Source: Escherichia phage FL18. Taken from it: a DNA stretch of 64,000 nt. Each line of letters starts with the position of its first letter. The first letter of the stretch is position 1. Location of the stretch: the sequence record PP400780; one strand, given 5' to 3'. The translations under genes and the position numbers were made by a program. A model generated the notes under the pieces. It saw nothing but the letters and a program-made list of their open reading frames with translations. It ran no database searches and was not told where the DNA came from. Below, one piece after another: positions 14,712 to 52,962 of the stretch.

Positions 14712-14752
14712 GTCAAAGCTTTACGTTTATTGTGATACGATTATGGAGGAGA

Positions 14753-19518: not shown

Positions 19519-20154
19519 ATGAAAACTACTCCTATTACTATCGCTATTGACGCAATCATAAAACAAGCTTCTTCTTTGGCCGCTATGGCCAAAGTAATTA
19601 GTCAAAACCCTGCTCGTTATAATGCTATTCTAGAAACTCTTCGACGCCCTGGACTTAGTAATTATGAAAGCCGGGTAATTATTACAGGTGTTGGTAAGAA
19701 TGCTAATATCGCAACTAAAGCTTCCGAGACATTTGCTTCACTAGGTATTCCTAGCATGTATTTGAACACTGGGCATTATTCTCACGGTGATGCAGGATTC
19801 ATTGCGCCTAATGATGTGTTGATTCATATTAGTCGTTCTGGTAAGACTGAAGAAATGATAGGTGTTGCTAAACATCTTCGTATGATTCGTCCTCAGGTTA
19901 AACAGATTCTGTTACATTGTAACCCAGACATTCCACAAGAATACGAAGCTCTTTTTGATTATACGTTCTGTACTGGCATCGCGGTAGAGGTTGATGAGAA
20001 TTCTCTGGCTCCGACTATGTCCACTACATTGTTGTTAGCGCTTATCGATACGTTTGCTATCAACCTTTCGTCTGAACGTGGATTTACCTCTAATGATTTC
20101 CTTAAGTTCCATCCAGGCGGTGCACTAGGTGCCATGTTACGAGGCGAACAATGA
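19519..20154 (+). CDS. SIS-domain sugar-phosphate isomerase, arabinose-5-phosphate isomerase-like (KdsD/KpsF N-domain)
   Basis: 211 aa; VIITGVGKNANIATK, HGDAG, HISRSGKTEE, FHPGGALG match the KdsD/GutQ SIS signature; no CBS domains. Confidence 0.8.
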   Translation: MKTTPITIAIDAIIKQASSLAAMAKVISQNPARYNAILETLRRPGLSNYESRVIITGVGKNANIATKASETFASLGIPSMYLNTGHYSHGDAGFIAPNDVLIHISRSGKTEEMIGVAKHLRMIRPQVKQILLHCNPDIPQEYEALFDYTFCTGIAVEVDENSLAPTMSTTLLLALIDTFAINLSSERGFTSNDFLKFHPGGALGAMLRGEQ

Positions 20155-20280
20155 AAGCAATAACAATAGGACTTTTACTATTGATGCTTGTCATGACTAT
20201 CTACTGGAGCTTAACGGCTCCGGTAATGATTCCAACACTTGTAATTGGATGGATTATGATTGGACTACAAGCAAAGTATG

Positions 20281-20307
20281 AATGCTTTAACTAGAATAGT
20301 GTACAAT
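20281..20307 (+). promoter_or_regulatory. MotA-box middle promoter upstream of nucleotidyltransferase-kinase gene
   Basis: AATGCTTTAA box about 19-20 nt upstream of TACAAT -10. Confidence 0.45.
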
Positions 20308-20335
20308 ACTCCTACTTACCAATGAGGACTTTAAC

Positions 20336-22021
20336 ATGAAAAAAGCTGTTATTCTTGGTGCTGGACTGGCAACTCGTTTGTATCCAATAACGCATCATAT
20401 TCCTAAGGTGCTTGTTAACTATAAACAAGATACTATTCTGAGCAATTTGTATACAATTTATTCTGACCTTGGCGCAGATGAAATTATTGTAGTAGTTCAT
20501 TCAAAATTTGCTGAAACTGTTCGAGCTTATTGTGAACAAGAAGGGTTCAATGTGACTATTCGTACAGTTGATGAAGCGTATGGTTCTGCTTATGCTCTTG
20601 CTAAATTACACAAAGATTTAGACGGCCATAATGTAATTGTTAACTGGTGTGATATTATTCCTGATTTTGGTTCATGGTCTTGGAATGTTAACGCAATCTA
20701 TGTTAAGGGTGACGAATGTCGATATAATTTCGACGGTGAAAATATCACTAACGTAGGTTCAACAGGTGGTAATGTTGTAGGAATTTATCAGTTCAAAGAC
20801 TGGGAATTCTATATGGGTTCTACTGATGAGGAAATTCATGAATACTGCAAAGGACGTGATTTCGTAGAATTCCTTTACGGCAGCGCATTCAATAAATCAG
20901 AGCTTATGAATCTAATTGATTTAGGTGATATGCCTAAACTTGAAAAAGCTCATGAAGTTCGTGAACTTAATCGTAGTTTTAATGCAGTTGAAATTGGTGA
21001 AGAAACTGTAACTAAATTCGCATTAACCGAACAGGGTCGAGCTCTTCAGAAAGATGAGATTTCGTGGTATCTTAAAGTGAAATCAGATTCAGTTCCTCAG
21101 TTAGTTTCTGTTAATGAAAATAACTTTGAAATGGAACGCATTAAAGGTAAGCCTGCATTTGAATATATTAAATCCAAATCAAGTCTTGCTCGTCCACAAA
21201 TTGTTGATGCAATTTTAGATGCACTGAAATTCAGCACAGACACTTATTTTGTAAGTCCTGAAACTGTTCGTCGTGATTTCACTAAAGAATTCTATACGAA
21301 AGTTATTGATCGTTGTGAAAGCATTCAACCATTGATTGATTCATTTGGTAAAATCACACATGTGAACTACACTAAGATTGGACGTCTGAAGCCAATGCTG
21401 AAACAAGCTTTAGAACACCTCATTCGTTATCATAACCGTTCTCAGGGACAGTACTCTGTTATTCACGGTGACCCGAACTTCAGTAATACTATGATTACTG
21501 ATAATGGCGAAGTCAAGTTTATCGACCCTCGTGGATATTTTGGTGAAACCAAGATTTACGGGCCAAAATTGTACGATGAAGCTAAAGTGCTTTATGCTGT
21601 TTCAGGTTATGATGAATTCAATGCTAATCCGACCTGGGGGCAGTTTACTATTGATGAAACAACTTGTAATGTGACTATTAACATCAATCCATTAGTTTAC
21701 AAATATAGAAAGATGAGTTCGTTTAACGAGTATCATCATTTGGCAGTGGCAATTATCTGGATTGCATTAGGCGGTTATTTCAAGAATAATCCACTTAAAG
21801 CGGTAGCCGCATATTATAAAGGTATGGAACTTCTGACTAAGCAATTACGTAACATGGGCCGTGTACTTCAGGACGGCTCTATTAGTTATGACGTAGCAGA
21901 ACCTGTAACGGCTACTCTGATTACAAAAAATCCTGGTAAATGGGTACTAACTGATAAAGAAACTGGTGTTTCCTATCGTCCAATCGGTGGCGATATCACT
22001 CATCAATGGGAACGAATCTAA
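20336..22021 (+). CDS. bifunctional sugar-1-phosphate nucleotidyltransferase / APH-fold sugar kinase
   Basis: 561 aa; N-terminal AVILGAGLATRLYPIT nucleotidyltransferase loop; C-terminal HGDPNFSN...FIDPRG phosphotransferase catalytic/Mg loops. Confidence 0.75.
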   Translation: MKKAVILGAGLATRLYPITHHIPKVLVNYKQDTILSNLYTIYSDLGADEIIVVVHSKFAETVRAYCEQEGFNVTIRTVDEAYGSAYALAKLHKDLDGHNVIVNWCDIIPDFGSWSWNVNAIYVKGDECRYNFDGENITNVGSTGGNVVGIYQFKDWEFYMGSTDEEIHEYCKGRDFVEFLYGSAFNKSELMNLIDLGDMPKLEKAHEVRELNRSFNAVEIGEETVTKFALTEQGRALQKDEISWYLKVKSDSVPQLVSVNENNFEMERIKGKPAFEYIKSKSSLARPQIVDAILDALKFSTDTYFVSPETVRRDFTKEFYTKVIDRCESIQPLIDSFGKITHVNYTKIGRLKPMLKQALEHLIRYHNRSQGQYSVIHGDPNFSNTMITDNGEVKFIDPRGYFGETKIYGPKLYDEAKVLYAVSGYDEFNANPTWGQFTIDETTCNVTININPLVYKYRKMSSFNEYHHLAVAIIWIALGGYFKNNPLKAVAAYYKGMELLTKQLRNMGRVLQDGSISYDVAEPVTATLITKNPGKWVLTDKETGVSYRPIGGDITHQWERI

Positions 22022-22407
22022 TGCACCGTGTAGAAAACATGCTTAATCTTTGTTTTGATGTCGATGATTGTATAACAGAGTGGAATAACAATCGTGATTA
22101 CGTGAACTTCAAACCTGACGTCGAAATGGTGTCTGCCATTAATGCCCTGTATGATGCAGGGCATACCATAACGCTTTACACTGCTCGCGGTATGAAGTCA
22201 GTAGGTCCTGGACGTATAGCAATTGACATTCTCCCAAGTCTGATTCAGAACTTGGAAAACATTGGTTTGAAGTACCATAATTTGCTAACACATAAACCAG
22301 TATATGATTGGATTATCGACGACAAAGCTATGCGTCCTGACGAATTCAAAGCTCTTATGAATAAAGGCGAATTCGAAACATTTAAATCGTATAAACCGAA
22401 TCTATAA
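22021..22407 (+). CDS. HAD-superfamily phosphatase (KdsC-like size)
   Basis: 128 aa from ATG overlapping upstream stop (TAATG); HAD motif I CFDVDDCIT. Confidence 0.65.
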   Translation: MHRVENMLNLCFDVDDCITEWNNNRDYVNFKPDVEMVSAINALYDAGHTITLYTARGMKSVGPGRIAIDILPSLIQNLENIGLKYHNLLTHKPVYDWIIDDKAMRPDEFKALMNKGEFETFKSYKPNL

Positions 22408-22463
22408 TAATTTAAGTAAGACCTGCAAAAACCATCGCGTCAATTAACGTGAGATGCAAAAAA

Positions 22464-23624
22464 ATGAATACTTTTAAAATTGGAACGAATTTTGATTTAG
22501 CTCTTCTTGATAAAATCGTAGAGCTCAATAAAACTTATCCTAATAGCTTGATAAACGAAGTATACGGCTCTACAAGAGAAATGGCTTTTGTAGCAGCCAG
22601 ACCTGATTTTAGGCTTCCTGACGTTGACAAAAAGATGTTAGAAGATTACGTTAAACGTTGTAACGAATTAGGTATTTGCTTTAACTATACACTCAACACG
22701 ATAAATCCTGGTTCAAAAAGAGAACTAGTTGAGTGGAAGAAGAAAGCTATTCAGGATTATGTTCAGTATCTTTGGTCAATAGGTGTATGGCGTATTACTA
22801 TCGCTAACCCTGTTGTTATGGAAATTGTTCGTGAAGTCAATAAAGACATTGAGATTGAAGTTTCAACAATTCTACATGTCGATGCTGTAACTCAAATCAA
22901 ATACTTGCATGACCAGTATAATATCAAAAAGGTCTGCTGTGGAATTCATAAGAACCGTTCAGTTTCTTTCCTGAAGCGTGCAGCAGAGTTTTGCAATAAG
23001 AACAATATAATATTTGAAGTTCTTGTAAATGAGTTCTGTTCTAATGCTGGTAAAGGGTATACAACACATTGTAGCTATCGTGACTCTTGCTATATTTTCC
23101 ATAGTACTGATGTTACAGCTGATGATGCTAAATCCTTAAACGGATATCCTATGCAGCACTGTATTAAAGCTCGTGATACAGACCCATTTAACTGGTTGAG
23201 AACTCGTTTTGTTCGTCCTCAAGATTTGAAACTTTATAATGATATTGGTATCACTCAATTCAAAGTTTCAGGACGTACAGGTAGCACAGACTACATTTTG
23301 AAAGTTCTTGAAGCATACGCTTCTGAAAAGTTTGAAGGTAATTTGTTAGAACTGTGGAAGCCTTTAGAGACTATTTTCACTCTTGAAAACGAAACTGAGT
23401 TTTCACATACAGTAAATATTGAAACCTCTTTGTTAGATGGCTTTTTAGAAAAAAGGTGGTTCAGACATCCAGATTTCGATTGTGCTAATGAAATCTGCGG
23501 GACGACGTGTACATATTGTGAAAGATATTATAAACGTCAATTATCTAAAAACGGGTTAGCAGAAAACTCTATATCTATTATTGATATAACTAACTCTGAT
23601 GACGCTTTGAGGTACCCGGAATGA
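22464..23624 (+). CDS. U32-peptidase-family-like protein (TIM-barrel, Cys-rich)
   Basis: 386 aa from first ATG; N-terminal VYGS..FVAAR..NYTLNT resembles U32 barrel; EFCSNAGKGYTTHCSYRDSC cysteine cluster; family assignment tentative. Confidence 0.45.
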   Translation: MNTFKIGTNFDLALLDKIVELNKTYPNSLINEVYGSTREMAFVAARPDFRLPDVDKKMLEDYVKRCNELGICFNYTLNTINPGSKRELVEWKKKAIQDYVQYLWSIGVWRITIANPVVMEIVREVNKDIEIEVSTILHVDAVTQIKYLHDQYNIKKVCCGIHKNRSVSFLKRAAEFCNKNNIIFEVLVNEFCSNAGKGYTTHCSYRDSCYIFHSTDVTADDAKSLNGYPMQHCIKARDTDPFNWLRTRFVRPQDLKLYNDIGITQFKVSGRTGSTDYILKVLEAYASEKFEGNLLELWKPLETIFTLENETEFSHTVNIETSLLDGFLEKRWFRHPDFDCANEICGTTCTYCERYYKRQLSKNGLAENSISIIDITNSDDALRYPE

Positions 23625-23860
23625 TTTCTAGAAAAACTTTTAATCACCAACTTAATGAAGAGATTTTGACTACGAAACTGAACACTAACGAACAAATTCT
23701 TAAAAAGGCCCTTATGGGCCTGTTTGAAACCAAAGCGGCTAAAGTGATTAAAGGACCTGTTCAATTAGAATATTACGCTGATACATTTCTTCATAGTGTT
23801 CTTGGAAGTATCGATGCTGAAGCTTTACGTTATATCAACATTGCCAAGAAATTCAAATAA
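23621..23860 (+). CDS. hypothetical protein (79 aa)
   Basis: ATGA-coupled ORF inside the cassette. Confidence 0.5.
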   Translation: MISRKTFNHQLNEEILTTKLNTNEQILKKALMGLFETKAAKVIKGPVQLEYYADTFLHSVLGSIDAEALRYINIAKKFK

Positions 23861-23883
23861 GCTTTACGAATTGAGTATATAAT
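23859..23883 (+). promoter_or_regulatory. MotA-box middle promoter upstream of hydroxymethylase gene
   Basis: AAGCTTTAC box about 18 nt upstream of TATATAAT. Confidence 0.4.
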
Positions 23884-23902
23884 AAATTGTATTGAGGTAA
23901 AC

Positions 23903-24619
23903 ATGGGGAAACATAACACAATGAAATATATCAAAGCCGCAGATTTTCAAACCGCATTTAAAGCAGTCAATCGTGAAATTTTAGAAAACCCGGAATTCGT
24001 AACTGATTCTCGTATTGGACGTTGTAATGAAATTGGGTCTATGACAGTAGTTGTTGACACTCCATCATCATTCAAAATGACTGACCCACGTATTAACCGC
24101 ATCTCTTATGAATATGCCGAAGACTTCTGGAAGTTTATGATTTCTGGTGGTACCAACGCAGAAGAAGCGTTTAAGGCATATCCTAATGTCGCTAAATTTA
24201 TTTCTAAACCAAAATCAGATGTTTTGCCGGCGAACTTCAATACTTTCTATGGTCCTCGCATTGCGGCCCAATTACCAGCTCTTCTAAAAGAACTTAAAGA
24301 GAAGCCTAACTCTCGAAGAGTTGTGTTCCAAATTCTAGAAAGTTCTGATCAGGCTTTGCTTGATTCGGATGAAACGCTTGAATATCCATGTACTGACTCA
24401 GTGACTTATTATATTCGTGATGGTAAGCTTTATACCCACTGTCATATGCGTTCTCAGAACTGTGCTGTTGTTATGCAGTTGGATTTTTATCTCCAAGGAA
24501 AATTACTTCATTATATCGCTAACGAATGCGGTGTAGAAGTTGGTGATTATACTCATACCATGGTAAGTGCCCATGTGTTTGAACGTGATTTTGATTATGT
24601 TAAAGGATTCCTTGACTAA
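23903..24619 (+). CDS. thymidylate-synthase-fold pyrimidine hydroxymethylase, divergent (gene 42 position; likely dCMP hydroxymethylase)
   Basis: 238 aa; PNSRRVVFQIL, catalytic-Cys context YPCTDSVTYYIRDGKL, MRSQN, HTMVSAHVFERDF align with T4 gp42/TS motifs but overall divergent. Confidence 0.65.
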   Translation: MGKHNTMKYIKAADFQTAFKAVNREILENPEFVTDSRIGRCNEIGSMTVVVDTPSSFKMTDPRINRISYEYAEDFWKFMISGGTNAEEAFKAYPNVAKFISKPKSDVLPANFNTFYGPRIAAQLPALLKELKEKPNSRRVVFQILESSDQALLDSDETLEYPCTDSVTYYIRDGKLYTHCHMRSQNCAVVMQLDFYLQGKLLHYIANECGVEVGDYTHTMVSAHVFERDFDYVKGFLD

Positions 24620-25518
24620 TGGCTATTTTCCGCGTACCAATCTTGAGTATGCGGTCTTATGAAACTGGACAGTATGCTATCCTTAAGGATGGCAACTTCC
24701 AACTTCATTTGCACCGTGCTAATCCGGGTGATGTGATTACATATCCACGTAATGCATCTGATATTAAAGAATGCGAACGTCTTTTCCCAGAATTTAAGTT
24801 TGTTCCATTATGGTATAAAGATAACGCTTATAACACTCGTAAATATTTCTGGTCTGAAAATGAATTTGTGGTTGATTCATTAATTGCTTATTATGATTGC
24901 GATTTTCTAATCACAGATATAACTGGATATGACGGCGCTTTTGATGTAGAATTCAATTTCAATATCACTGCAGACCCTAATAAACCACGTTTTTATATTG
25001 ACGAATTCTTAAAAACCGACATGTTGTCGGTTAATCGTTCAATCCAAACAACTGTGTTGAATGAACGTCAAAAAGAAGTGCTGGTTAACGCAGGTGCAGA
25101 TGGTAATAAGATTATCGTAACGCAGAAAGTTATACGTCCTTCCATCATGCAGCGTCTTGTAGGTGATTTGGCTCCTATTTATCTAGATGGTATTTTTCAT
25201 CCATTTCGAATTAGTGACCCGTGCTATCGTTTTGAACAAGTGGTTGAATGTGCAATTCAATTAGGTCAACCGCTTTATATAACCGATCCAAATAATAGCT
25301 TTGACAGAAATAAGTATCCTGAAGAAGCGTTGATTCGAATTTTTAAACCAACTAAAACTGAGTACTATCAAATTCTTAAAGGACGTCCGAAGATTCAATA
25401 TTTCGAAAATCCTGAAGAGGTATTTCATCCAGGTCTTGGTGAGTTCATCTACTTTAATGCTTTAATTTCTTCACCGTATAATATACCTAAATATGAAGAT
25501 GTCGTAATCGAGGAATAA
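24619..25518 (+). CDS. hypothetical protein at beta-glucosyltransferase locus (candidate DNA sugar transferase)
   Basis: 299 aa; no similarity to T4 beta-gt noticed; function by position only. Confidence 0.5.
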   Translation: MAIFRVPILSMRSYETGQYAILKDGNFQLHLHRANPGDVITYPRNASDIKECERLFPEFKFVPLWYKDNAYNTRKYFWSENEFVVDSLIAYYDCDFLITDITGYDGAFDVEFNFNITADPNKPRFYIDEFLKTDMLSVNRSIQTTVLNERQKEVLVNAGADGNKIIVTQKVIRPSIMQRLVGDLAPIYLDGIFHPFRISDPCYRFEQVVECAIQLGQPLYITDPNNSFDRNKYPEEALIRIFKPTKTEYYQILKGRPKIQYFENPEEVFHPGLGEFIYFNALISSPYNIPKYEDVVIEE

Positions 25519-25519
25519 A

Positions 25520-26068
25520 ATGGCTAAAATTATTTTAGTAGATGGCCCGGATAATGCTGGTAAAACAACTTTCATTAATGACATAATGGAAATTAGTGAA
25601 AGATATGTAAAAATTGATTTCCCTAAACGAACAGTTGATGGACGTTTCGATGTTAAGTCTCGAAATGAAGTTGGCTGTTTTGAAACGATGTTGAATTATT
25701 TAGACCCTACTAAGATTTATCTGTTAGACCGTGGATATATTAGTAACTGGGTTTACGGACGTATTCGACAAGATGCGGACTCGGTTCTTGACGTTTATGA
25801 ACAGGATTATATTCGTCTTTGCCAAAACCATGATGTGTTCACAATTATTTTAACACGTAACGAAATGACTGAAAGTTTTGAAGACGACCTTATTACTTTG
25901 TCTTCATTCGGTTTTAATACAGTCATTTCACATTTTGAAGAGTTTGCAATTCATAACAAAATCCAAACGTATCAATTACTTAATCATGATGGTGCTAACA
26001 AAGTTATAGGATTTAATGCAAGCGAACGTAATGGTTTGATTACAGAAATCATCAAATGGGCTCGTTAA
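25520..26068 (+). CDS. P-loop nucleotide kinase, thymidylate-kinase-like
   Basis: 182 aa; Walker A VDGPDNAGKTT, LLDRGY (DRY/H-like) motif. Confidence 0.65.
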   Translation: MAKIILVDGPDNAGKTTFINDIMEISERYVKIDFPKRTVDGRFDVKSRNEVGCFETMLNYLDPTKIYLLDRGYISNWVYGRIRQDADSVLDVYEQDYIRLCQNHDVFTIILTRNEMTESFEDDLITLSSFGFNTVISHFEEFAIHNKIQTYQLLNHDGANKVIGFNASERNGLITEIIKWAR

Positions 26069-30854: not shown

Positions 30855-31103
30855 ATGGAATTATTCGTAGCTAGTTCAGTAGCAGTTTTAATCGCAGGTA
30901 TTGGTTCAATCATCATTTACATGTTGCCTTGGGTAATCGCACTTATTCGTGGCACAAAAAGCACAACAGCAATCTTCTTTGTATCTTTACTCTTTAACTG
31001 GACGATGATTGGTTGGATTGGAACTTTAATTTGGTCTATCGTTGCCGAAAAGAAATCTGCTCAGCAGCCTCAACAAGTAATTATTATTCGCGAAAAAGAA
31101 TAA
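30855..31103 (+). CDS. imm: superinfection immunity protein Imm-family membrane protein
   Basis: 82 aa, two TM helices; YMLPWVIALIRG...NWTMIGWIGTLIWSI fits the Imm family signature as I recall it. Confidence 0.55.
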   Translation: MELFVASSVAVLIAGIGSIIIYMLPWVIALIRGTKSTTAIFFVSLLFNWTMIGWIGTLIWSIVAEKKSAQQPQQVIIIREKE

Positions 31104-34143: not shown

Positions 34144-34665
34144 ATGGCACACTTTAACGAATGTTCACAACTTATTTCTGGTGTTGATAAAGCAGAAGAA
34201 GCTTATTTTAATGCTCTGATTCACGAAGATAAAGACCCACTGCAGGTAATGCTTGATATGCAGAAATCTTTACAGGTTCTTCTGGCAAATGACAAGCCTG
34301 AACATAACAAACATCCTGATGAATTGGCTACTGCTGGTGATGTTGTTGATTGGCTGCGTAATCAGAAAGATTATATTGATGATGAATTTCGTGAACTGCT
34401 GACTTCACTTGGCGGTATGAGCAATGGTGAAAAAGCTGCCAGCAGTGTATGGAAGCCGTGGAAGGCACAACACGCTGAATATCGAAATCGTCGTATCGAT
34501 GAACTGTCTCCTGAAGACCAGCTTGAAATTAAATTTGAAATGATTGATATTCTGCATTTCGTTCTAAATATGTTCCAAGGTCTAGGACTTTCTGCTGAAG
34601 AAATCTTCAAACTGTATTATCTGAAAAACCAACACAACTTTGAACGTCAGGATAATGGTTACTAA
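34144..34665 (+). CDS. 56: dCTP pyrophosphatase gp56 (MazG-like)
   Basis: 173 aa from ATG (MAHFNEC); close to T4 gp56 as recalled. Confidence 0.92.
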   Translation: MAHFNECSQLISGVDKAEEAYFNALIHEDKDPLQVMLDMQKSLQVLLANDKPEHNKHPDELATAGDVVDWLRNQKDYIDDEFRELLTSLGGMSNGEKAASSVWKPWKAQHAEYRNRRIDELSPEDQLEIKFEMIDILHFVLNMFQGLGLSAEEIFKLYYLKNQHNFERQDNGY

Positions 34666-44393: not shown

Positions 44394-44411
44394 GGGCTTC
44401 GGCCCTTTTTG
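44393..44411 (+). terminator. intrinsic terminator
   Basis: AGGGC-TTCG-GCCCT followed by TTTTT. Confidence 0.55.
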
Positions 44412-44434
44412 CTTTAGATTTCGGATGATAGAAT
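44410..44434 (+). promoter_or_regulatory. MotA-box middle promoter upstream of gene 39
   Basis: TGCTTTA box about 19.5 nt upstream of TGATAGAAT. Confidence 0.45.
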
Positions 44435-46316: not shown

Positions 46317-47417
46317 ATGAAAGTTATGTTTATCCCATCTCGCGCAGTCCCATTTAACCCAGAACGTGTACAAGGTGGTCTTGAAGCAGTACATTTAAAT
46401 GTGTTGAAATATCTTGTGTCCATCGGTGCTGATATTGATTATATCGGCTTTGATAATGACACGTTTGGTGACTGGAAGGTTAATCATCATCCTGTTGGTC
46501 ATCTGACTAAATTCAGTCTAGGTATGAGTTATACTATGGCTCGTAAGATTGTTGAACTAGCCGGCATTAATGAGTACGATTTCGTTGTTACAATGGAACC
46601 GACCAAACTAACCGTTCAGGCAATTAAAGACGCAGGTCTCTCTAAAGTTCATAAGAATTTTATGGCAACACCATTTGAACCAGTATCTCGTGGCATTGTT
46701 CAAATTTGGGACCAGACTATTCAAATTCATAAGAACGGTGGTAAGAGTTATGCTCCTACTAAAGCCTTCCGTGAATTTGAACGCAAATATTGTTATATGA
46801 CTTCAGGTCTGACTGACAAAATTGATTATGATTATTGGCGAGCAAATCCGTTGTTTGAAGCCGAAGATTATCCGGTTATTTGTTTGAATGATAAACCTGA
46901 AGTTCTTCCGGCGACGGATCTGATTATTAGTGCACAACGTTATGACACTAAAATGCGTCGTACTGATGTTGCTCTTGAAGCGATTAAAGCACTAGGCGAA
47001 AATGGTGCAGGATACTGTCCAAGCAAATGGGCGCCACCGGCTAAATATCCTGTTATTATTGATGCTCCACACAGTGAAATTATGGAACGTCTTAAAACAG
47101 CTAAAGCACTTATTAATACGTGTCCTGACACAGGTACGGTAGAGAATAGTTCTATTGAAGCCATCTCTAAAGGTGTCCCTGTAATCCAGTTAGTTTTTAA
47201 GGATTATCCTCATGCGACATTTGAATACGACCCAGATACTGTGCGTGTAGAAATTGATTCCTCTACTCCTAAGAAAGAAGTAGTTGCGCTTTACACAAAA
47301 GCTGTATTAGAATTCACTGACACATACGAAGCTCGAGTTAAACGTGCTGAAGCTGTATGGAAGAAGTATAACCGAGATGCAGTTGTTGCGATGTGGGATA
47401 AAATCTTCACAGCGTAA
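46317..47417 (+). CDS. GT-B fold glycosyltransferase (candidate DNA sugar transferase)
   Basis: 366 aa; N-terminal MKVMFIP..GGLEAVH Rossmann start; C-terminal TGTVENSSIEAISKGVPVI resembles the GT4 E-x7-E donor-binding motif. Confidence 0.6.
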   Translation: MKVMFIPSRAVPFNPERVQGGLEAVHLNVLKYLVSIGADIDYIGFDNDTFGDWKVNHHPVGHLTKFSLGMSYTMARKIVELAGINEYDFVVTMEPTKLTVQAIKDAGLSKVHKNFMATPFEPVSRGIVQIWDQTIQIHKNGGKSYAPTKAFREFERKYCYMTSGLTDKIDYDYWRANPLFEAEDYPVICLNDKPEVLPATDLIISAQRYDTKMRRTDVALEAIKALGENGAGYCPSKWAPPAKYPVIIDAPHSEIMERLKTAKALINTCPDTGTVENSSIEAISKGVPVIQLVFKDYPHATFEYDPDTVRVEIDSSTPKKEVVALYTKAVLEFTDTYEARVKRAEAVWKKYNRDAVVAMWDKIFTA

Positions 47418-52329: not shown

Positions 52330-52962
52330 ATGTCTAAAGTTACTTACATCATCAAAGCTTCTGAAAACGTTCTGAATGAAAAAACTGCTGCAATAATGGT
52401 TTATATCATTAAGAACAACTTCACAACTGCTGCCAATGTCCGTGAAGCTCTGGAAGCAGAATACAATGCATCAGTTGTTAACTCTAACATTGGTGTATTG
52501 ATTAAGAAAGGTTTAGTCGAAAAATCTGGTGATGGACTTGTAGCAACAGGCGAAGCAATGGATATTATCCAAAAAGCTGCAGACCTATTTGCTCAAGAAA
52601 ATGCTCCAGAACTTCTTCAGAAACGTAACACCAGAAAAGCACGTGGAGTTACTCCTGAAATGCATGAACTAGCAAACTTTGTTTTTGAAAATATTAAAGA
52701 TAAAGTTGAAGTTAAAGAAATTGGTGAAAACCGTAGTAACTTGGAAGTTCGATTTGCAAAACGAGTTCTAGGTATTCGTCAGATCGAAATTCGTCGAGAT
52801 GGCGCTCTTAGAATCTTTGCATACAACATGTCAGAAACTGAATCAAAGCTGTTTACTTCTCTTGAAAATGATGTTAAGATTAAGATCGGTGGTAAATATA
52901 CCTACATTGACTTCCCTAATGTGTCCAAAGAAATCATTACCCTTGTAACTAACGTACTGTGA
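52330..52962 (+). CDS. motA: middle-transcription activator MotA
   Basis: 210 aa; N-terminal MSKVTYIIKAS and NSNIGVLIKKGLVEKSGDGL match T4 MotA as recalled; C-half more divergent. Confidence 0.85.
   Translation: MSKVTYIIKASENVLNEKTAAIMVYIIKNNFTTAANVREALEAEYNASVVNSNIGVLIKKGLVEKSGDGLVATGEAMDIIQKAADLFAQENAPELLQKRNTRKARGVTPEMHELANFVFENIKDKVEVKEIGENRSNLEVRFAKRVLGIRQIEIRRDGALRIFAYNMSETESKLFTSLENDVKIKIGGKYTYIDFPNVSKEIITLVTNVL

Follow-up and report, generated by a model that had tools for sequence, protein, structure and literature searches.

The question raised by this locus is what reaction is catalysed by the protein encoded between genes 43 and uvsX of Escherichia phage FL18. The window analysed is a stretch of 64,000 nucleotides (64 kb) from sequence record PP400780, and its source, a T4-type phage resembling RB69, belongs to the genus Mosigvirus. 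The open reading frame (ORF) at 23903-24619, on the plus strand like all window genes given with coordinates below, lies in the slot of T4 gene 42, and its public annotations disagree, ranging from thymidylate synthase through deoxycytidine monophosphate (dCMP) hydroxymethylase and deoxycytidylate 5-hydroxymethyltransferase to hypothetical protein. An initial annotation of this DNA favoured a divergent hydroxymethylase. The product is very probably a dCMP C5-hydroxylase (5-hydroxy-dCMP synthase), a protein of thymidylate synthase fold in which methylene-tetrahydrofolate would be exchanged for flavin and O2. This function is already known from one paper of 2025 (Cell Host & Microbe), two of 2026 (NAR; Nature Chemical Biology) and PDB entries released in July 2025; the experimentally supported name, dCMP hydroxylase, is used by none of the database records inspected for this gene.

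The ORF is a real gene, with an ATG start, a GAGG ribosome-binding site 6 nt 5' of that start, 238 codons for amino acids and a TAA stop that shares bases with the start codon of the gene that follows (TAATG). Its DNA is 99-99.9% identical to dozens of Mosigvirus genomes, and the surrounding gene order (44, 62, regA, 43, cassette, uvsX, 40, 41) is that of Shigella phage JK36 and RB69. The four motifs from which the initial annotation deduced a thymidylate synthase fold are all present (PNSRRVVFQIL at residues 135-145, YPCTDSVTYYIRDGKL at 161-176, MRSQN at 182-186 and HTMVSAHVFERDF at 218-230), and the deduction itself is borne out. The single Pfam match is PF00303 (Thymidylat_synt; E=2.3e-15), which covers the C-terminal half of the protein and, at 56.9 bits against a gathering cut-off of 24.3, places it in the thymidylate synthase/dCMP hydroxymethylase superfamily. 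Cys163 in its P-C motif, S137-R138-R139 and R183-S184 all fall in invariant columns, and a Foldseek comparison of the predicted structure with thymidylate synthase and MilA structures gives template-modelling (TM) scores of 0.75-0.85. The PHROG match is phrog_160, named 'thymidylate synthase'.

Within this superfamily, the ORF is nearly identical to characterised enzymes. It is identical to RB69 gp48 at 236 of 238 residues (99%), the substitutions being N85D and V107A, and the region around it keeps the RB69 gene order at a nucleotide identity of 97.7%. Among PDB sequences, 9iqc/9ir2 and 9iqu matched at about 98% identity over the full length (E=8e-161, in a range of 1e-157 to 1e-161), with 5 differing positions, and the AlphaFold model (predicted local distance difference test score, pLDDT, 87.7) matches 9iqc and 9iqu in Foldseek with TM scores of 0.94-0.97. 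Entry 9iqc bears the title 'Monooxygenase dependent on riboflavin with dCMP and FAD' (FAD, flavin adenine dinucleotide), and 9iqu the title 'phage HY126 dCMP hydroxylase-AfhB with substrate dCMP'.

The biochemistry of these orthologues was described by Lee et al. (NAR 2026, PMC13326640), who found arabinosylated 5-hydroxycytosine in the DNA of RB69 and of Acinetobacter phage DLP3. When RB69 gp48 was produced in E. coli together with the phage deoxynucleoside monophosphate (dNMP) kinase, the bacterial DNA contained 5-hydroxydeoxycytidine (5hodC), which co-eluted with a 5hodC standard, and 18O2 labelling traced the product oxygen to O2 (PMC13326640). In the same assay T4 gp42 gave 5-hydroxymethyldeoxycytidine (5hmdC), unlike the gp48 product in both retention time and mass (PMC13326640). 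Purified 5-hydroxy-dCMP synthase is yellow and releases a flavin resembling flavin mononucleotide (FMN), and Asn at the position of ThyA Asp169 (D169N) is described as diagnostic for such synthases (PMC13326640). The group of such synthases takes in RB69 gp48, DLP3 gp80 and HY126 AfhB. For the crystal structure of the HY126 enzyme and for the reconstitution in vitro, the same paper cites He et al. 2026.

This diagnostic signature is complete in the FL18 protein. In the alignment, whose E. coli ThyA sequence was checked for its length and at residues 143, 146, 169 and 177 only, Glu160 of the ORF corresponds to ThyA Leu143, Cys163 to ThyA Cys146 and T4 gp42 Cys148, Asn186 to ThyA Asp169, Val190 to ThyA Gly173, and Asp194, 11 residues past Arg183, to ThyA Asn177 and T4 gp42 Asp179. 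Asn186, Asp194 and Cys163 thus supply D169N, N177D and the catalytic Cys, and all five ORF residues are invariant in the best 120 homologues, at identities down to 53%. The Asp that the initial annotation placed 11 residues after the RS motif is therefore confirmed by alignment, and the cytosine specificity it deduced from this residue is likewise supported; the 98-99% identical orthologues act on dCMP. Its view of MRSQN as a family hallmark holds for the presence of the motif but not for its being typical, as MRSQN contains a departure from the family: Asn186 stands in the place of the folate-binding Asp169 of ThyA.

The signature bears directly on the proposal that the ORF is a divergent dCMP hydroxymethylase, equivalent to T4 gp42, that would convert dCMP to 5-hydroxymethyl-dCMP with methylene-tetrahydrofolate. 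The proposal draws on the gene 42 slot between 43 and uvsX, on several GenBank records that use the name, and on a set of features shared with gp42, namely the thymidylate synthase fold, the Cys, the Asp at Asn177 (Asp194) and the acidic residue at Leu143 (Glu160); RB69 DNA was also taken to contain arabinosyl-hydroxymethylcytosine by Thomas et al. 2018 (PMC6024577). However, the 99%-identical RB69 gp48 gave 5hodC rather than 5hmdC, with 18O from O2 (PMC13326640), and the structures solved for the 98%-identical AfhB carry a flavin. At the folate site, all 120 homologues have Asn for Asp169 and Val for Gly173, where T4 gp42 retains Asp and Gly, and the ORF is no nearer to gp42 (53 bits) than to ThyA (57 bits). 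Taken with the 98%-identical AfhB, which likewise makes 5-hydroxy-dCMP with flavin and O2, these results leave the enzyme assignment of the initial annotation unsupported, and hydroxymethylation by the FL18 protein is very improbable.

The commonest database annotation, that of an ordinary thymidylate synthase making thymidine monophosphate, is less probable still and can practically be dismissed. It is in keeping with the PF00303 match, the phrog_160 name and the many records so annotated, but the Asn177 that specifies uracil is Asp194 in the ORF and the folate-binding Asp169 is Asn186. Without exception, the NCBIfam equivalog models for thymidylate synthase score far under their cut-offs (TIGR03283, 68.1 vs 174.55; TIGR03284, 50.1 vs 108.35; others, 17-50 vs 325-427), the experimental product of the orthologue is 5hodC (PMC13326640), and a true td gene exists elsewhere in the RB69 genome. 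Thymidylate synthase activity, which the initial annotation had named as the outcome that would overthrow its cytosine-directed assignment, is argued against by the equivalog scores as well as by the Asp at Asn177.

The preferred assignment, that the FL18 protein would make 5-hydroxy-dCMP with flavin and O2, follows from its near-identity to the assayed orthologues and from the intact signature, and the UDP-arabinose (UDP, uridine diphosphate) and arabinosyltransferase genes of the surrounding cassette (19519-26068), together with a second arabinosyltransferase gene at 46317-47417, provide the expected context. Two points weigh on the other side. The ORF differs from RB69 gp48 at 2 positions and from HY126 AfhB at 5, though at none within the active-site signature, and the assays are those of the orthologues. 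Accounts of the flavin also diverge, with FMN in PMC13326640 and FAD or riboflavin in the PDB titles.

A reaction scheme can be proposed in which the dCMP substrate, the 5-hydroxy-dCMP product, the O2-derived oxygen and the bound flavin are known for the 98-99% identical orthologues, and the chemistry at C6 and C5 is modelled on that of thymidylate synthases and flavin monooxygenases. The dCMP would be supplied by the gp56 dCTPase (34144-34665; 97% identical to RB69 gp56; PMC13326640 Table 1), which makes dCMP and removes deoxycytidine triphosphate. Asp194 would select the cytosine base and Cys163 would attack C6 of dCMP, as the nucleophile does in all thymidylate synthase-family enzymes, thereby activating C5. 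The activated C5 would then capture an O2-derived oxygen by way of reduced flavin instead of a folate methylene, and elimination of the Cys would free 5-hydroxy-dCMP. The phage dNMP kinase (gp1), possibly with the thymidylate-kinase-like nucleotide kinase of the cassette (25520-26068; RB69 gp45; phrog_761 thymidylate kinase, E=7e-45; 98% identical to RB69p045; PMC13326640 Table 1), would raise the product to the triphosphate, which gp43 would build into DNA in place of C.

The remaining steps of the scheme would be carried out by the rest of the cassette, which is present as a whole at 97.7% nucleotide identity to that of RB69, so that the initial annotation's placement of the ORF within a modification cassette stands. 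UDP-arabinose would be formed by an arabinose-5-phosphate isomerase with an SIS domain (19519-20154; RB69 gp55; 98% identical to RB69p055; PMC13326640), a bifunctional sugar kinase/UDP-arabinose pyrophosphorylase (20336-22021; RB69 gp52:53, analogous to HY126 AfhE; 99% identical to RB69 ORF052/053; PMC13326640) with an N-terminal NTP_transferase and a C-terminal kinase-like domain, and a haloacid dehalogenase (HAD)-type sugar-bisphosphate phosphatase (22006-22407; RB69 gp51, analogous to HY126 AfhF; TIGR01689 capsule biosynthesis phosphatase, E=2e-13; 98% identical to RB69p051; PMC13326640). With this donor, arabinose would be added to the 5-OH by DNA arabinosyltransferase 1 (24619-25518; RB69 gp46:47; phrog_3891; 98-99% identical to RB69 ORF046 and ORF047; PMC13326640 Table 1) and DNA arabinosyltransferase 2 (46317-47417; RB69 gp3; 362/366 residues identical to RB69p003; PMC13326640 Table 1), and the resulting arabinosyl-5-hydroxycytosine DNA would withstand restriction enzymes. 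The gene for arabinosyltransferase 1, whose start codon overlaps the hydroxylase stop, lies in the T4 beta-gt slot, and a T4 beta-gt query found no match in the 64-kb window.

Two of these cassette genes, 20336-22021 and 24619-25518, are single intact ORFs in FL18, whereas in the RB69 reference record a frame change divides each of them into two (ORF052/053 at L003:8095-9781 and ORF046/047 at L003:4598-5498, L003 being the RB69 locus). The intact forms are in line with the published view that sequencing errors account for the splits in RB69.

The origin of the hydroxylase gene can be approached through its distance from T4 gp42. The two proteins are 24.8% identical, compared with 61.7% for gp43, 67.9% for uvsX, 85.6% for gp41, 82% for gp40, 79% for regA, 74% for gp62 and 77.5% for gp44 against their T4 counterparts; the initial annotation's observation that the ORF is far more diverged than its neighbours (62-86%) is thereby upheld. 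The hydroxylase and its glycosyltransferase nevertheless occupy exactly the positions of T4 gene 42 and beta-gt. The best 60 PDB sequence matches include MilA and many ThyA chains but no T4 hydroxymethylase chain. Because the ORF is as far from gp42 as from ThyA, and because its nearest structural neighbour other than AfhB itself is MilA, the pattern is as expected of a replacement or of a very ancient divergence, not of drift in recent times. The earlier suggestion that the gene was acquired with its cassette, not reached by vertical drift, is no more than plausible; GC content, examined for a compositional trace of recent acquisition, is flat (0.34-0.39) across the cassette and its flanks and gives no signal. 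A redundant canonical gp42, whose presence would also have undermined the initial annotation, was looked for by tblastn with T4 gp42, E. coli ThyA and the ORF as queries. No second gp42-like gene was found in the window and no canonical gp42 in the complete RB69 genome, where exactly two genes of this fold were detected, gp48 and td; the latter is a true thymidylate synthase, 45% identical to E. coli ThyA and adjoining frd.

Transcription of the hydroxylase gene may depend on a middle promoter of its own. A predicted MotA-box-like promoter (GCTTTA, N11, TATAAT) is located at 23861-23883 on the plus strand, 20 nt 5' of the ATG, in agreement with the MotA-box promoter proposed in the initial annotation. 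The underlying consensus pattern (GCTTYA, N11-13, TAnnnT) occurs 33 times in the window as compared to 5.6 +/- 2.5 times in shuffled sequences, a six-fold enrichment, and 8 of 20 plus-strand sites fall within 60 nt 5' of an ORF where 1.9 would be expected. The activator itself, MotA, is encoded at 52330-52962 (Pfam MotA_activ, E=4e-40; MotCF, E=2e-8). Further sites of this kind occur at, for example, 20284-20307, 25459-25482, 14718-14741 and 44411-44434. Since the genes for sugar activation (20336) and for the cassette kinase (25520) are preceded by such sites, the cassette may have several middle promoters. An imm homologue, 65% identical to T4 Imm, is found at 30855-31100 (plus strand), 3' of gene 41, whereas in T4 imm lies between 43 and 42; its displacement downstream of gene 41 implies that the 43-uvsX interval has been rebuilt around the modification cassette.

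A second question is posed by the gene at 22449-23624, which encodes a U32-family, putative Fe-S-type protein (RB69 gp50; PF01136, E=7.5e-11) with conserved sets of cysteines. Its translation probably begins at the ATG at 22464 rather than at the GTG at 22449. The predicted structure (pLDDT 93) has as its best PDB fold match the U32 TIM barrel 5d88, and a sequence search of the PDB found no match. A search of 1.84 billion representative proteins yielded 1185 relatives. Three cysteines, C197, C208 and C238, never vary among 122 full-length relatives; a cysteine stands at the C214 position in 62%, and 93-94% keep a motif near the C terminus, C345-x4-C-x3-C-x2-C. C197 and C214 align with cysteines of UbiU, TrhP and RlhA, while the second Cys is displaced. 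The protein was labelled a 'sugar or heterocycle reductase' in PMC13326640, which nowhere mentions U32, prephenate or chorismate.

The characterised U32 members are tied to prephenate-dependent, O2-independent hydroxylation, including formation of 5-hydroxycytidine (ho5C) in rRNA and 5-hydroxyuridine (ho5U) in tRNA (PMC5727448, PMC6599085, PMC10990095). Tentatively, the hydroxylase described above could be the O2-dependent half of a pair in which the U32 protein, as a prephenate-dependent anaerobic C5-hydroxylase, provides the same 5-hydroxycytosine precursor. This proposal extends the dCMP hydroxylase explanation and does not contradict it, but it is somewhat more probably wrong than right. 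The family match, the chemistry of the characterised members and the cysteine conservation all speak for it, as does the finding that the only named NCBIfam families matched by any of 73 relatives are UbiU (5 members) and the prephenate-dependent tRNA uridine(34) hydroxylase TrhP (8 members; best E=5e-10). On the other hand, pairwise phmmer comparisons of the FL18 protein with E. coli TrhP, RlhA, UbiU and UbiV are not significant, the reductase label of PMC13326640 points elsewhere, and the U32 target could be a sugar or host RNA instead. The anaerobic route was proposed in none of the papers searched, a set that did not extend to He et al. 2026 and Mahler et al. 2025.

The prephenate-forming enzyme is chorismate mutase. 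A gene for it (Pfam CM_2, E=1e-9 to 1e-12) stands between those for U32 and the hydroxylase in Winklervirus, Kanagawavirus, Marfavirus, Gualtarvirus and other genera, an arrangement that speaks indirectly for a U32 hydroxylation route. CM_2 matches above cut-off identify such genes at L009:5658-6002, L012:2471-2848, L013:2492-2731, L014:2492-2731 and L015:2486-2731 (L numbers denoting the loci inspected), and in 4 of these 5 loci the chorismate mutase start overlaps the U32 stop. By tblastn the gene was found in 54 phage records, all listed matches being T4-like genomes of about 156-178 kb, and in all inspected loci it lies inside the U32-hydroxylase cluster; an IMG/VR search for relatives returned just 2 near-identical loci. 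Against the route stands the lack of a recognisable chorismate mutase in the window or in RB69, where tblastn with five phage chorismate mutases found no match.

In FL18 the slot of the chorismate mutase of other genera is filled by a 79-amino-acid ORF at 23621-23860, with the position, length and 4-nt overlap of the CM_2 genes of Kanagawavirus phages Entb_45 and PEi26. As a candidate chorismate mutase this ORF was rejected: it has no Pfam match, BLASTP against the LC53 chorismate mutase is not significant, and hhalign of the two family alignments gives a probability of 0.1%. Homologues of it occur on Mosigvirus-like contigs only, with some database entries no longer than 47-58 amino acids. 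The gene has been either replaced or left to decay.

The distribution of the U32 gene bears on the proposed two-route system. Aerobic and anaerobic routes are paired in NrdAB/NrdDG, TrhO/TrhP and UbiIHF/UbiUV. The U32 gene is present in 221 of 342 hydroxylase-bearing phage records, across genera and always at 80% identity or more, and the hosts listed for these phages are all Enterobacterales or Shewanella, all of them facultative anaerobes. Of the phage records with the hydroxylase, 57 are from Acinetobacter, a genus absent from the organism names listed for U32, so that at most 3 of the 57 can carry the U32 gene. RB69 has the anaerobic ribonucleotide reductase genes nrdD/nrdG and is therefore equipped for O2-free replication, while AfhB requires O2 (PMC13326640). 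The gene is not present at the inspected Acinetobacter locus (Lazarus) or at that of the E. coli Dhakavirus Bp7, and some 40 E. coli phages of Dhakavirus type carry the hydroxylase without U32, which counts against the proposal; the Acinetobacter absence, moreover, may trace to one or two clades and not to losses that occurred independently.

The contexts of distant U32 relatives also speak for the proposal: in phage-like contigs they adjoin deoxynucleotide-metabolism genes, among them those for dNK, NT5C, dUTPase/DCD, ThyX, dCMP deaminase, methyltransferases and glycosyltransferases. These pyrimidine-gene neighbourhoods may be further pyrimidine-modification clusters, perhaps for 5-methoxy or glycosylated bases. 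Relatives at 33-50% identity occur in metagenomic contigs (L019-L025, L029 and L031-L032) with varied neighbours, including guanylate-kinase/methyltransferase fusions. Two contigs with U32 relatives carry CYTH, Nuc_deoxyrib_tr and Eco57I-type genes and resemble defence islands.

The assignment of the hydroxylase has consequences beyond the naming of one gene. Most database records say thymidylate synthase or dCMP hydroxymethylase and call for correction, given that 98-99% identical proteins hydroxylate dCMP directly with flavin. Flavin-based hydroxylation is an unexpected chemistry for the thymidylate synthase fold, and arabinosyl-5-hydroxycytosine differs from the classical hydroxymethylcytosine of the T-even phages. 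The identity of the base bears on predicting which restriction and defence systems are evaded or triggered by phages that are widely used as therapeutic candidates. If the U32 and chorismate mutase lead is true, it would explain how DNA modification is kept up without oxygen, for example in the anaerobic gut. The protein would then be the first of the U32 hydroxylases with DNA or a DNA precursor as its substrate, and the two enzymes would form a phage-encoded, third aerobic/anaerobic hydroxylation pair after TrhO/TrhP and UbiIHF/UbiUV; the U32 hydroxylase field would gain a simple, tractable substrate.

A comparison with known systems sets both proteins in context. The U32 neighbour (22449-23624) shares with TrhP, RlhA and UbiU/UbiV the U32 Pfam domain, the TIM barrel, a conserved K-x-x-G-R motif and, in the corresponding region, a group of cysteines, but its second Cys is shifted, it has the extra C-terminal four-Cys motif and its pairwise similarity to them is not significant. 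With ThyA and T4 td, the hydroxylase shares the superfamily, the presumed addition of Cys at C6 and the SRR and RS phosphate-binding motifs, whereas it has Asp for Asn177 and Asn for Asp169 and is without the C-terminal segment of ThyA (about 215-264). It is most like RB69 gp48 and HY126 AfhB (PDB 9iqc, 9ir2, 9iqu), with 98-99% identity, the same Cys/L143E/D169N/N177D signature, the same cassette and the same gene order; it differs from them in its 2 and 5 substitutions, outside the signature, and its function is assigned by sequence.

Beyond the AfhB group, the solved structure that the hydroxylase most resembles is the CMP 5-hydroxymethylase MilA (PDB 5b6d, 5jnh; TM 0.83-0.85, 23% identity), which is matched in sequence over the full length (E=4e-11) and is likewise specific for a cytosine nucleotide, but is a folate-dependent hydroxymethylase that acts on the ribonucleotide CMP in antibiotic biosynthesis. 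T4 gp42 resembles the hydroxylase in fold, in the Cys, in the cytosine-reading Asp, in the acidic residue at Leu143, in the 43-uvsX slot, in the DNA glycosyltransferase gene next to it and in a likely middle promoter. Beyond the 24.8% identity and the Asn for Asp169 and Val for Gly173 of the ORF, however, the two differ in chemistry: gp42 uses methylene-tetrahydrofolate to install 5-CH2OH, whereas the hydroxylase would use flavin and O2 to install 5-OH, and where T4 places glucose on the hydroxymethyl group, the phages with the hydroxylase place arabinose on the ether oxygen.

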